Shown here in pieces: positions 42,765 to 44,298 of a DNA stretch of 64,000 nt (position 1 is its first letter; every line of letters starts with the position of its first letter). The notes beneath the pieces were generated by a model. It was not told where the DNA came from. It was given only the letters and a program-made list of their open reading frames with translations, and made no database searches. The DNA comes from Methanobacteriota archaeon (lineage in GTDB: Archaea > Halobacteriota > Bog-38 > Methanoflorentales > Methanoflorentaceae): contig CAWDSY010000010.1 of the NCBI GenBank assembly GCA_963805115.1, forward strand, positions 51,464 through 115,463, given 5' to 3'. The translations under genes were made by a program, and so were the position numbers.

Positions 42765-42773
42765 TTTTATATA
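42765..42773 (+). promoter_or_regulatory. TATA box of the cimA-ilvBH operon
   Basis: TTTTATATA; implies a transcription start near 42795-42800. Confidence 0.7.
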
Positions 42774-42809
42774 GTTATGGCTTCCTTTTACAGCAAGGAA
42801 GTGACTACC

Positions 42810-42830
42810 GTGAGGGATCGCTTTATTTAA
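42810..42830 (+). promoter_or_regulatory. SD-led leader mini-ORF MRDRFI* overlapping the cimA frame
   Basis: GGAAGTGA (42797-42804) then GTG AGG GAT CGC TTT ATT TAA; cimA is in the +1 frame. Confidence 0.55.
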
Positions 42831-44298
42831 CGACATCAAGTTTTTCGACACGACGCTGCGCGATGGAGAGCAAACCCCTGGTGTGTCGCTCACTGCCGAG
42901 AAGAAACTGTGGATTGCTAAGGCCCTAGACAAACTCGGCGTGGACGTTATCGAAGCGGGATCCGCTGTCACGTCGGAAGGAGAGCGGACCGCCATAAAAG
43001 CGGTCGCCAACGAAGGATTGCGCCCCGAGATATGCAGCTTCGCGCGCGCCCTTCGGGGGGATATCAACTACTGCCTCGAATGCGACGTTGACTCAGTGCA
43101 CCTCGTCGTGCCCGTGTCGGATTTGCACATCGAAAAAAAGTTGCGCAAGGATCGAGATGCCGTGCTGCGCATGGCCGTGGAGACGACGGAGTACGCCGCC
43201 GAGCACGGCCTCATAGTGGAGCTTAGCGCCGAAGATGCGTCACGAGCGGACGGCGATTTTCTGCGCGAGTTCTACCGTCAAGGCGTCGCCGCAGGCGCCA
43301 AACGGCTCTGCTACTGCGACACCGTTGGCGTGCTCATCCCCGATCGCACTGCCGCTCAGTTGGCTGGCCTCGCGACGATAGCACCCCTAAGCATCCATTG
43401 CCACGATGATTTCGGCCTCGCGACGGCGAATTCCATCGCGGCCCTTTGGGCGGGCGCGACGCAGGTGCACGTGACGGTGAATGGTCTGGGTGAGCGTGCG
43501 GGAAACGCGTCGCTCGAGGAGCTCGTGATGACGCTTGAGTCACTGTATGGCCACCCAACGCGCATCAACACGACCGAGCTCTACCCTATTTCGAGGCTCG
43601 TGAGCAGGCTTACGGGCGTGCCCGTTGCCCAGAACAAACCCATTGTCGGAGAGAACGCGTTCACGCACGAGTCAGGCATCCACACCCACGGACTGCTGGC
43701 AGACACCCGGACGTACGAGCCGATCACCCCTGAGATAGTGGGTCGAGAGCGACGGATTGTGCTCGGAAAACACGCGGGCAGCGCGTCAGTGCGCCTCGCG
43801 CTACAGGAGCTCGGTCTCGACGCGGACGATGAGCAACTGAGCGATATACTGAAGCGCATCAAGGAGCTAGGAGATAAGGGAAAACGCGTCACCGACGCCG
43901 ACCTGCAAGCCATTGCCGATGCTGTGCTCGAGATCAATCGCGAGGCGCGCATAAAGCTGCAAGAGCTGACGGTCGTGTCGGGAAACATCGTTACCCCGAC
44001 CTCGTCAATCAAACTCTCAGTCGACGGCCAAGACGTCGTCGAAGCGGGCATCGGTCTCGGGCCGGTTGACGCCGCGATAAACGCGCTTAGAAAGGCGATA
44101 GGAAAGCTTGCGGATATAACGCTCGAAGAGTACCACGTTGATGCCATTACCGGCGGCACCGACGCATTGGTCGAGGTGTGGGTGAAGCTGAGCCGAGACG
44201 GCCACGTGATCACCGCGCGCGGCGCGCGCGCCGACATCATCATAGCGTCGGTTGAAGCGGTCGTTGAGGGCGTAAATAGGCTACTAACGTTGAAATGA
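42817..44298 (+). CDS. cimA: (R)-citramalate synthase (LeuA/CimA family); no canonical start before the DRE motif
   Basis: Frame extends upstream of the listed ORF as [44 protein letters not shown], LeuA-type regulatory domain; precedes ilvBHC. Confidence 0.85.

Follow-up and report, generated by a model that had tools for sequence, protein, structure and literature searches.

The window analyzed here, a stretch of archaeal DNA of 64,000 nucleotides, carries on its forward strand the gene order cimA-ilvB-ilvH-ilvC. Downstream of cimA lie ilvB (44312-45985, + strand; TIGR00118 above cut-off), the gene for the acetolactate synthase small subunit, ilvH (45989-46489, + strand; NF008864/TIGR00119 above cut-off), and ilvC (46660-47670, + strand; NF004017/TIGR00465 above cut-off); the NCBIfam equivalogs and the shared orientation agree with the first-pass annotation, which had placed cimA at the head of this unit. 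The cimA product scores 639.5 bits against NF002085 (cut-off 517) and 533.9 against TIGR02090 (cut-off 484.75), and its catalytic domain with DTTLRDGEQ, together with a LeuA dimerisation domain, makes it a member of the LeuA/CimA/homocitrate synthase family (HMGL-like DRE-TIM); the corresponding domains PF00682, PF22617 and PF08502 are found on all close relatives. NCBIfam does not discriminate CimA from LeuA, as this protein and its paralogue both pass only subfamily models. Source annotations call relatives of this gene (R)- or D-citramalate synthase and relatives of the paralogue 2-isopropylmalate synthase, and these names agree with the gene order and with the Ile and Leu codons described below. 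The only tRNA gene nearby is a tRNA-Arg(CCG) at 40612-40686, which was judged irrelevant.

The 5' end of cimA has no ordinary start. By direct reading, the codons for DTTLRDGEQ (GAC..CAA, 42847-42873) lie 5' of the first canonical in-frame start, GTG at 42883-42885 (+). The cimA frame is closed by TGA at 42811-42813 (+), after which it reads GGG ATC GCT TTA TTT AAC GAC ATC AAG TTT TTC and enters the catalytic motif, with no ATG, GTG or TTG in between; re-reading confirmed each of these points as first reported. The frame is open from 42814 to 44298, or 494 codons, while automatic ORF callers settle on the GTG and give cimA as 42883-44298, 471 aa.

Upstream, a TATA-box-like TTTTATATA at 42765-42773 (+), found by direct reading and kept in same-genus relatives, is likely the promoter element of the cimA-ilvB-ilvH-ilvC unit, a role that we assume from the archaeal TATA consensus. 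It is followed by a Shine-Dalgarno (SD) sequence, GGAAGTGA at 42797-42804 (+), for which the 3' end of this genome's 16S rRNA (..GGATCACCTCCT) gives a predicted pairing of -9.7 kcal/mol. The SD serves a GTG at 42810, at a spacing of 5 nt; spacings of GGTGA-type sites across the genome peak at 4-5 nt. This GTG, which overlaps the closing TGA (GTGA), opens a leader ORF that reads GTG AGG GAT CGC TTT ATT TAA (M-R-D-R-F-I-stop; 42810-42830, +), and reading and translation bear out the earlier description of an SD-led mini-ORF overlapping cimA at +1. With the leader taken as the 0 frame, cimA lies at +1 (equivalently, the leader lies in the -1 frame of cimA). Within the leader, TTT (Phe, 42822-42824, +) is the proposed P-site "slippery" codon, with TTA at 42823-42825 as its +1 counterpart; ATT (Ile, 42825-42827, +) is the proposed sensor, or "hungry" A-site, codon; TAA (42828-42830, +) ends the leader; and the body of cimA in the +1 frame would run from 42826 (TTT AAC GAC ATC AAG TTT TTC GAC ACG ACG ...) to its stop at 44298 (+). 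Two nt 5' of the TTT lies a second sequence complementary to the anti-SD, GAGGGATC (42812-42819, +), a candidate frameshift stimulator whose duplex with the 16S 3' end is calculated at -11.5 kcal/mol, a value past the 1st percentile for random 14-mers drawn from the same genome. The arrangement, an ORF1 with its own start signals overlapping at +1 an ORF2 without a usable start, is that of prfB- and antizyme-type genes.

The missing start is real and is not an assembly error. An identical layout was found in 12 of 12 same-genus loci read, two of them from single-contig genomes; the 494-codon frame is intact, at 90-98% identity, across the genus; and contigs from two independent DNA studies, together with one RNA-library contig, span 42650-43050 with zero indels. 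An indel from sequencing or assembly, a pseudogene, or an enzyme truncated by initiation at GTG 42883 would sit well with the 471-aa form given by automatic callers, but the genus-wide layout and the indel-free contigs exclude the indel that the first-pass annotation had entertained, and since conserved protein is encoded 5' of GTG 42883, we regard this whole class of explanations as extremely improbable. Public 471-aa entries begin at the site of that GTG (MSLTAEKK..); the Methanosarcina entries said earlier to start at MRDGEQ were not seen, related truncations of the MSLTAEKK.. kind being seen instead. Correction at the RNA level, by editing or transcriptional slippage, found no support: the RNA contig over 42650-43050 differs by 17 substitutions and 0 indels, and no long homopolymer occurs at the site, with the proviso that contigs drop rare variants and RNA libraries can contain DNA. 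In a second RNA run one contig ends at 42741 and another starts at 42816, with adapter-like letters at both and the gap between them uncovered; contigs cannot show RNA ends. An in-frame ATG followed by read-through of the TGA (ATG TGA GGG in some Methanolobus and relatives) was likewise set aside, the codon before TGA being variable: ATG, TTG, TCG, ACG, CTG, and CCG here.

Comparison of cimA 5' DNA across relatives shows that the layout recurs: the cassette is present in 78 of 108 CimA loci from about 15 families of Halobacteriota, which are related genomes and not independent samples. A canonical in-frame start is absent from 54 of the 78 loci with the cassette and from 0 of the 30 without it. 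In all 78 no stop interrupts the main frame between the site and the catalytic motif; in 53 the frame is closed exactly three codons 5' of the site. The sensor codon is Ile in 76 of the 78. Loci were placed by a scored site search, by which L091 was mis-registered; L088, L089 and L092 (MSECFI by eye) were left out of the cassette set and counted as lacking it, as were L057, L309, L310 and L280, while L028 and L029, matches to the CimA query, were moved to the LeuA set, being LeuA hits. L111-L230 were left out of the Ile-versus-Leu counts because the scan pattern that retrieved them demanded ATY.

A sister cassette stands on the LeuA paralogue, in the same genome and in about 17 families, and its main frame too lies at +1. 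Here the sensor codon is Leu in 66 of 68 cassette loci, and a canonical in-frame start is absent from 24 of the 68 loci with the cassette versus 1 of 24 without. The LeuA main frame likewise runs without a stop between site and catalytic motif in 68/68 loci, including all 38 of those that have a later in-frame ATG. Two further paralogues in the same genome, neither in amino acid synthesis, lack the cassette and begin at ordinary ATG codons. Three loci break the pairing of Ile with CimA and of Leu with LeuA: L106 is a CimA that carries Leu, and the LeuA-like gene of L298 and L299 has Val-Ile. This pairing is observed directly, as are the anatomy of the cassette, its conservation and its association with missing starts.

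In CimA the sensor Ile is maintained at a position that is synonymous for the main frame: the main-frame Leu codon that overlaps it is always TTA, a codon that accounts for 6.2% of Leu codons in this genome, and Ile is thereby kept in the 0 frame, where TTG would retain the main-frame Leu but give Val. In LeuA the Leu codon is forced by a main-frame Phe-Tyr pair in 47 of the 68 loci; where the main frame instead encodes Phe-Phe, Phe-Leu or Phe-Ser (second codon TT.. or TC..), the first Phe is TTC in 19/19, so that the 0 frame reads Leu and not Phe. The P-site codon, which is NTT by definition of the cassette, is TTT, ATT or CTT in CimA and TTT, CTT or GTT in LeuA. Re-pairing at +1 would be UUU to UUA in CimA and UUU to UUU/UUC or CUU to UUC in LeuA; on UUA, UUU would re-pair at only 2 of 3 positions and AUU at only 1 of 3. 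The internal element falls below the 5th percentile of background in 64% of CimA and 71% of LeuA cassette loci, and is weak in two CimA families (f9 and f12) and two LeuA families (f3 and f7).

The start of the 0 frame is, on these sequences, a real start, as SD spacing lies at the genome peak and the nearest upstream ATG is mostly in this frame. With the site set from the main frame alone, the nearest upstream ATG of CimA loci is a 0-frame codon in 39, a third-frame codon in 2 and a main-frame codon in 15, and 18 loci have none; in LeuA the corresponding counts are 51, 0, 9 and 0. Distances run from 12 to 54 nt, and the 0-frame register is kept through these varied leader lengths. L057 is a natural in-frame revertant, in which loss of 1 nt joins the same GTG to the cimA frame and gives MRGLLLENIRFLDTT. 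In Methanothrix/Methanotrichaceae a 0-frame ATG and an in-frame ATG stand 4 nt apart in every locus examined. By contrast, the Methanosarcinaceae cimA has no clear 0-frame start (NTG with any N, ACG in one MAG, none in Methanimicrococcus) and no upstream SD.

From this anatomy we suggest, at about even confidence, that the cimA cassette is a programmed +1 frameshift that senses aminoacyl-tRNA. Ribosomes would load at the SD (42797-42804) and initiate at GTG 42810, reading the leader frame; four codons on, TTT would occupy the P site and ATT the A site, and GAGGGATC could pair with the 16S 3' end in the register of a true SD relative to its start codon. If Ile-tRNA arrives quickly, ATT would be read and the ribosome would stop at TAA, with no CimA made; if Ile-tRNA is scarce, the paused ribosome may move +1, from TTT to TTA, and go on in the cimA frame. 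Because CimA catalyses the entry step from pyruvate towards isoleucine, a shortage of isoleucine would increase its synthesis, and the LeuA paralogue would use the same device with Leu codons. The proposal of end-product-sensing recoding in the first-pass annotation thus survives in part. Its core, an SD-led ORF whose Ile codon would sense the end product, with cimA at +1, draws strong support from the comparison of loci (likewise, with Leu, in LeuA), but a TAA directly after the Ile codon is particular to this genus; in other lineages the 0-frame stop comes 1 to 14 codons past the sensor codon. A wider family of "recoding attenuators", in which CimA and LeuA would be made only or mainly when the ribosome on a 5-20 codon leader lacks Ile- or Leu-tRNA and slips +1, is suggested by the comparison of loci with confidence somewhat short of even. 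Its range among methanogenic and methanotrophic archaea may extend, at that same slightly guarded level, to Methanosarcinaceae, Methanotrichaceae, Methanocellaceae, Methanoperedens, the peat lineages studied here, families that seem to belong to Methanomicrobiales, and apparently some Methanomassiliicoccales.

The main frame 5' of the proposed site also looks selected: ATC and ATT alternate there while the 0 frame varies among Arg, Cys, Tyr, Leu and His, and the GAT 5' of the site is never GAC, though GAC is 58% of Asp codons. This main-frame selection fits initiation at AUY or a constraint at the RNA level. A shift immediately after the start codon (RUG-A-GGG) was considered, and would account for the conservation of main-frame G-I-x; it leaves the invariant pair of NUU with Ile or Leu unexplained, however, and no common slippery motif is present.

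The chief alternative, initiation at the in-frame ATC (42817-42819, +), read as Met, with the small ORF as a competing or regulatory overlapping uORF, is the start assumed by NCBI-type annotations, and public entries for relatives begin at the equivalent Ile codon (e.g., MVLFGDVRFFDTT). Among cassette loci without a canonical start, 54/54 in CimA and 22/24 in LeuA retain the main-frame ATY. A lineage with a neighbouring in-frame GTG has AGT instead; the codon otherwise alternates synonymously between ATC and ATT, and L086 has ATG at exactly this position. In addition, G-I-x-L-F is surely translated where an in-frame ATG exists, in Methanothrix (MRGIALFG), Methanosalsum and Methanolapillus. In Methanosarcinaceae, moreover, the first ATT of the cassette appears from the sequence to sit at the position of a start codon relative to the SD-like element. 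On this reading the Ile codon would be a weak, regulated start, like the AUU start of infC and the non-canonical starts that translation table 11 allows. Unlike in infC, however, the ATC here is 12 nt from the SD, where the genome spacing peak is 4-5 nt, and lies 7 nt inside an ORF whose GTG, at 5 nt, is better placed; in families with two extra leader codons the ATY is about 18-21 nt from the SD. Nor would initiation at ATC explain why Ile in CimA and Leu in LeuA occupy sites free of main-frame constraint, and a ribosome stalled at the sensor codon would probably cover the ATY, so that starvation would lower and not raise expression. In one genus, f3g4, LeuA has no in-frame ATG, GTG or TTG and no in-frame ATH codon whatever, and an ATG-led 0-frame ORF ends ..CLLHR*. 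A 2020 review names, in the portion available, only AUG, GUG and UUG as archaeal starts, and offers there no precedent for AUU or AUC (PMC7531240). The ATC alternative raised in the first-pass annotation is thus weakened by spacing and favored by main-frame ATY conservation, and on balance we consider it unlikely.

Sensing might also occur without a frameshift, the leader detecting Ile or Leu by pausing and the main frame being started otherwise, whether by ermC-type attenuation, by termination-reinitiation through the internal SD-like element, or by a T-box-like "specifier". The small ORF, conserved, SD-led, preserved in frame and bearing the cognate codon, suits such schemes, as do the in-frame ATG at or near the leader stop codon in LeuA of several families and the paired ATGs of Methanothrix. 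Yet the 54 CimA cassette loci without a canonical start have none from the upstream stop to the catalytic motif, and the variable position of the leader stop is a poor fit for reinitiation at one set position; in LeuA, the stretch from the cassette to the later ATG stays open in the main frame and is conserved as protein (..ESIR..). Folding of 42794-42900 is no better than that of shuffled RNA (z -0.19), with no downstream structure predicted, and a search of Rfam gave no family at the site, its sole match, to a lncRNA at E 7.4, being due to chance. Of the marks of a leader-peptide attenuator, the short ORF with codons for the regulating amino acid is present (1-3 such codons), but the leader overlaps the gene and this fold leaves no terminator or antiterminator hairpins between them. 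Sensing without a frameshift appears to us quite improbable.

The preferred reading, a +1 shift at NUU-Ile/Leu, resembles prfB, the gene for release factor 2, in which a +1 shift into a startless body, with an anti-SD element before a NUU P-site codon, is autoregulatory. The cassette has the same short ORF1 with its own start, startless body at +1, anti-SD-complementary element and NUU P-site codon, and, as proposed, the same autoregulatory logic, in that slow decoding in the A site would report the supply of what the pathway provides. It differs in that the sensor would be an Ile or Leu sense codon and charged tRNA rather than a stop codon and release factor, in that the host is archaeal, and in that the internal element has the spacing of an initiation site (matching GGTGA plus 4 nt) rather than at the "too short" spacing of prfB. 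Bacterial ilv and leu attenuation, including that of Corynebacterium and Actinobacteria, relies on end-product codons in a short leader and on ribosome speed to set expression; here too a very short ORF ahead of a branched-chain gene carries end-product codons. Unlike those leaders, it has one to three sensor codons, overlaps the coding start of the enzyme in another frame, and is followed by no predicted terminator/antiterminator, and the enzyme frame is often startless. Starvation-induced shifts in bacteria are, to our knowledge, known as errors and not as conserved regulators of amino acid biosynthesis genes. The +1 shifts of Ty1 (CUU-AGG) and antizyme combine a slow A-site codon with a shift-prone P-site tRNA, and that of antizyme senses a metabolite (PMC8211752, in part); these respond to a rare tRNA or to polyamines, where the cassette would respond to Ile or Leu. 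The portion available of that source gives fucA1 of Saccharolobus solfataricus as the only demonstrated cellular frameshift in archaea, and mentions +1 only for a haloarchaeal virus (PMC8211752). The fucA1 shift is a -1 event at an A-AAA-AAT heptamer, occurs in a single species and has no regulatory role known for it. Like fucA1, cimA would be a cellular archaeal gene split over two frames, but its shift would be +1 rather than -1.

Scans of this genome turned up no evidence of the device beyond the two branched-chain genes. A crude scan for SD-led small ORFs overlapping startless long frames returned 7 cases at +1, including cimA, versus 5 in the -1 control, and the other +1 matches have no obvious amino acid signature; a search of the same genome for the cassette pattern with up to 2 mismatches returned 35 matches versus 21 in the reversed control, of which only cimA (exact) and leuA are meaningful.

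Archaea are not known to have the stringent-response and attenuation systems of bacteria, and little is known of how they sense amino acid supply. Literature searches found no archaeal leader-peptide control and no cellular +1 frameshift, and nothing on recoding or leader ORFs at archaeal cimA or leuA in the available portions of the literature (including PMC3711429, PMC8211752, PMC11456600, PMC13158618 and PMC7531240). The hypothesis is directly testable, as Methanosarcina is genetically tractable, and ribosome-profiling data for M. mazei are described as public in the part available of PMC11456600. A practical consequence concerns annotation: hundreds of genomes carry wrong gene models for cimA and leuA, either cut past the catalytic motif or given arbitrary starts at Ile codons. 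If the frameshift is true, it would have no cellular +1 precedent among programmed frameshifts of Archaea, and no frameshift-based amino acid sensor would have been known before it in any domain. Two key branch-point enzymes of branched-chain synthesis would then have their production set during translation, by charged tRNA for the end product of each, and the device would join the logic of bacterial attenuation to prfB-like mechanics, in archaea with a central part in methane cycling.

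At the 5' end of cimA, which encodes citramalate synthase of the isoleucine route, a TATA-box-like element, TTTTATATA (42765-42773, + strand), lies upstream of a leader in which AGGAAGTGA and CTACC are followed by GTG AGG GAT CGC TTT ATT TAA CGA CAT. Translation of the window gives a small leader ORF, VRDRFI* (+ strand), opening at GTG 42810. The cimA frame itself is closed by TGA 42811, one base past that opening, and then stays open for 494 codons to 44298, and its first ATG, GTG or TTG is GTG 42883, which lies 3' of the DTTLRDGEQ motif (42847-42873); the ORF caller's cimA accordingly runs from GTG 42883 to 44298 (471 aa). 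Everything that the first-pass annotation had stated about the sequence here proved correct on direct reading of the window. Downstream of cimA follow ilvB, the gene for the small acetolactate synthase subunit, and ilvC; upstream are an ordinary-looking M42-family aminopeptidase gene (41643-42719, + strand) and an ordinary-looking tRNA-Arg(CCG) gene (40612-40686, + strand). Relatives in the protein collection, named (R)- or D-citramalate synthase, carry four different annotated starts: the downstream GTG (MSLTAEKK.., 471 aa, lacking the catalytic motif), the Leu codon preceding DTT, the second ATC (MKFFDTT), and the first in-frame ATC or ATT read as Met (Methanococcoides MALFENIRFLDTT, Methanohalobium MILFENIRFLDTT, Methanocella MVLFGDVRFFDTT). 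None of the CimA relatives inspected there is annotated as recoded.

An indel error had been put forward as an alternative to recoding. The window belongs to contig C10 of a genome of 15 contigs and 2.0 Mb, and GTGAGGGATCGCTTTATTTAA with the same closed frame recurs in 12/12 loci of the same genus (L001-L010, L018, L020), two single-contig genomes among them. DNA contigs of sequencing runs X3 and X7, from two different studies, cover 42650-43050 with 1 and 3 substitutions, respectively, and 0 indels, and an RNA-library contig of run X15 crosses the same interval with 17 substitutions (none in 42787-42965) and 0 indels. A sequencing or assembly error at the cimA start is ruled out by these same-genus loci and indel-free contigs from public runs. 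In a further RNA library (X16) one contig ends at 42741 and another begins at 42816, with adapter-like letters beside both and the gap uncovered; the gap could correspond to the transcript ends of the aminopeptidase gene and cimA, although such contigs are unable to show ends.

The arrangement is treated here as a cassette: an SD-led small ORF (0 frame) with an NTT codon in the proposed P site followed by a putative sensor codon (TTT 42822-42824 and Ile ATT 42825-42827 in the window), and the enzyme (main) frame at +1. CimA-like matches at E <= 1e-150 occur in 314/401 genomes of the phylum, Halobacteriota to judge by the names of hits, and 108 5' regions formed the comparison sample. A scored detector demanded NTT, a hydrophobic pair in a main frame at +1 of the small ORF, and an open 0 frame led by an NTG within 25 codons; it found the cassette in 78/108 CimA loci, from families f1, f2, f3, f9, f11, f12, f14, f15, f17, f21, f23, f25, f28, f30 and f34. 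The leader typically reads ATG AGG GAT TGY TTT ATT TAA, ATG ACA GAT CGT TTT ATT CCC CGG TAA or ATG NNN AGA AGG RAT YNT TTT ATT.., with ATG AAT GCG TGG GAT CGC TTT ATT TGG TAG in Methanothrix and NTG AGG GAT TRY ATT ATT CGA.. in Methanosarcinaceae. The cassette is absent, and CimA has an ordinary ATG in frame, in families such as f6, f13, f10, f7, f36, f32 and f26; the f13 matches (genomes G038, G058, G067, G076, G111) are each interrupted by one or two in-frame stops (TGA or TAA), although ordinary ATG starts stand at their 5' ends. A pattern scan with one genome per species returned at least 120 stretches. The matches listed include five further records (L119, L150, L181, L172, L186): two MAGs of Methanomassiliicoccales, of which one is a complete chromosome, MAGs labelled Odinarchaeia and Nanoarchaeia, where binning errors are possible, and one unclassified archaeal MAG. 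The cassette is therefore apparently not restricted to Halobacteriota.

A second, cassette-like match in the window's own genome lies outside the window, on the minus strand of contig C4 (about 116972-117016), directly 5' of the LeuA paralogue, whose relatives are named 2-isopropylmalate synthase by their sources. Its leader, ATG TAC TCG AGG GAT CGC CTT CTT TGT CAA TTC GAG AAT GAA TAA (MYSRDRLLCQFENE*), overlaps the main frame at +1; the cassette is missing from two more paralogues in this genome, of the homocitrate/AksA type, which begin at a plain ATG. With a cut-off of E <= 1e-165, 305/401 genomes contain a LeuA-like match, and the cassette is present in 68 of a sample of 92 5' regions (loci L231-L320 among them). 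The critical codon is Leu in 66/68 LeuA loci (P- and A-site codons TTT TTA in 29, CTT CTT in 11, CTT TTA in 8, TTT CTA in 7, TTT CTT in 6, CTT CTC in 2, CTT CTA in 2 and GTT CTA in 1) and Ile in 76/78 CimA loci (TTT ATT in 49, ATT ATT in 21, TTT ATC in 5, CTT ATT in 1). The CimA exceptions are L091, a mis-registration by the detector (the actual leader is MSECFIL*), and L106, with Phe-Leu and an in-frame GTG. The LeuA exceptions, L298 and L299 (f7, genus g25), match LeuA best (58-59% identity). Their small ORF reads MFYSVI* (Val-Ile), and their main-frame stretch, FIALF(N), resembles that of CimA and is followed by a normal in-frame ATG; a swapped leader or a wrong orthologue assignment could be the cause.

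Part of this codon identity is imposed by the overlapping protein. A main-frame Phe-Tyr pair leaves no choice but a Leu codon in 47 LeuA loci, which are therefore uninformative on selection of codon identity. The main-frame Leu codon over the CimA sensor is always TTA (6.2% of Leu codon usage in the window's genome, against 14.7% for TTG), where TTG would keep Leu and place Val in the 0 frame; in all 19 LeuA loci with main-frame Phe-Phe, Phe-Leu or Phe-Ser, TTC encodes the first Phe, so that the 0-frame codon is CTT or CTC (Leu) and never TTT. Lineages with ordinary starts lack the main-frame stretch G-I-x-(L/F)-(F/Y), which is therefore dispensable for the enzyme; the near-invariance of its nucleotides points to a function of the cassette itself.

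Translation of the small ORF is suggested by its start. The 16S rRNA of the window's genome ends in ..CTGGATCACCTCCT, and the spacing from GGTGA-type SD cores to the starts of long ORFs in that genome is most often 4 nt (35 cases) or 5 nt (21 cases); GTG 42810 stands at 5 nt. With the site set by the main-frame peptide alone and a reach of 75 nt, the nearest upstream ATG is in the 0 frame in 39/74 CimA and 51/60 LeuA loci, in the main frame in 15/74 and 9/60, in the third frame in 2/74 and 0/60, and absent in 18/74 and 0/60, the 18 being mostly of the window's genus, whose leader start is GTG. These 0-frame ATGs precede the site by 12 to 54 nt, and in 39/39 CimA and 49/51 LeuA loci no stop interrupts their frame up to and including the sensor codon; a frame kept across so many leader lengths is what a translated ORF would predict.

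The cassette goes with the missing start. An in-frame ATG, GTG or TTG (up to three codons before the motif) is absent in 54/78 CimA and 24/68 LeuA loci with the cassette, and in 0/30 and 1/24 loci without it. From site to motif the main frame is open in 78/78 CimA and 68/68 LeuA loci, including 38/38 LeuA loci with a later in-frame ATG; for mononucleotide shuffles of these stretches the mean probability of staying open is 0.60 and 0.32, respectively. Three codons 5' of the site the main frame is closed in 53/78 CimA and 19/68 LeuA loci, so that entry to the enzyme frame falls within about four codons. Judged from the sequences, it must be entered either by a shift from the 0 frame or by initiation at the sole near-cognate codon there (ATY).

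Initiation of CimA at that Ile codon (ATC 42817 in the window), read as Met, is favoured by several features: the codon is kept in 54/54 CimA and 22/24 LeuA start-less loci, ATC and ATT interchange while the 0-frame residue varies (R, C, Y, L or H), and GAT is nowhere replaced by GAC; G-I-x-L-F is moreover truly translated where an in-frame ATG precedes it (Methanothrix MRGIALFG). However, the SD distance is too long (12 nt in the window, and longer in families with two extra leader codons), LeuA of f3 genus g4 has no ATH codon at all, and the part of a review dealing with archaeal start codons gives no precedent. Pausing at the sensor codon would also place a ribosome over ATY; starvation would then repress, and the Ile or Leu sensor codon would be left without a sensible role. 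We consider this route unlikely, and other couplings between leader ORF and main frame less probable again.

The best-supported reading is a +1 frameshift, to which we give about an even chance; it uses all conserved elements and has the right adaptive sign. The P-site codon is NUU throughout, and an internal GAGGGATC forms a duplex of -11.5 kcal/mol with the anti-SD (upstream SD, -9.7; random 14-mers, mean -3.7 and 1st percentile -10.7 kcal/mol), stopping 2 nt short of the NUU codon, the register of a real SD to its start codon. Of the loci with the cassette, 64% for CimA and 71% for LeuA have this element in a strong form; in some families it is weak. L057 (f2, genus g90) is a natural revertant, in which loss of one base lets the leader GTG read directly into cimA (MRGLLLENIRFLDTT); its close relatives L045 and L047 keep split frames.

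Some lineages fit less well. Methanosarcinaceae cimA lacks a clear 0-frame start (NTG with any N; none in Methanimicrococcus), has a long conserved upstream leader, and has ATT rather than TTT as P-site codon in 21/21 loci; since this ATT stands at a start-like position relative to the SD-like element, it may itself be the start. In Methanosarcina the expected 0-frame start codon is CTG or TTG, and blocks conserved across species (e.g. ctgagaaaaatatatgtaat, gcaaaatagg) about 130 nt 5' of the cassette (L051-L060, L111, L114, L126, L135, L157, L160, L168, L170, L183, L190) suggest that the 5' leader is long and structured, or that some other regulatory element lies there. In Methanothrix two ATGs 4 nt apart are kept, one in the 0 frame and the other in the enzyme frame.

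Our literature search found no report of recoding or leader ORFs at archaeal cimA or leuA. In the parts of a 2021 review concerned (PMC8211752), demonstrated cellular frameshifting in archaea is confined to a -1 event in fucA1, and +1 is mentioned solely for a haloarchaeal virus; the main text of the GeneTack survey (PMC3711429) contains neither 'citramalate' nor 'isopropylmalate', and that of a Methanosarcina mazei Ribo-seq study (PMC11456600) none of 'citramalate', 'isoleucine' and 'frameshift'. Of the first-pass proposal of an isoleucine-sensing +1 frameshift, the leader ORF with its Ile codon stands as a conserved feature, and the shift itself is put forward as the best-supported candidate mechanism. 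The amino-acid specificity of the cassette, Ile for CimA and Leu for LeuA, is well supported by comparison of these loci, and the cassette is a real, deeply conserved regulatory element.
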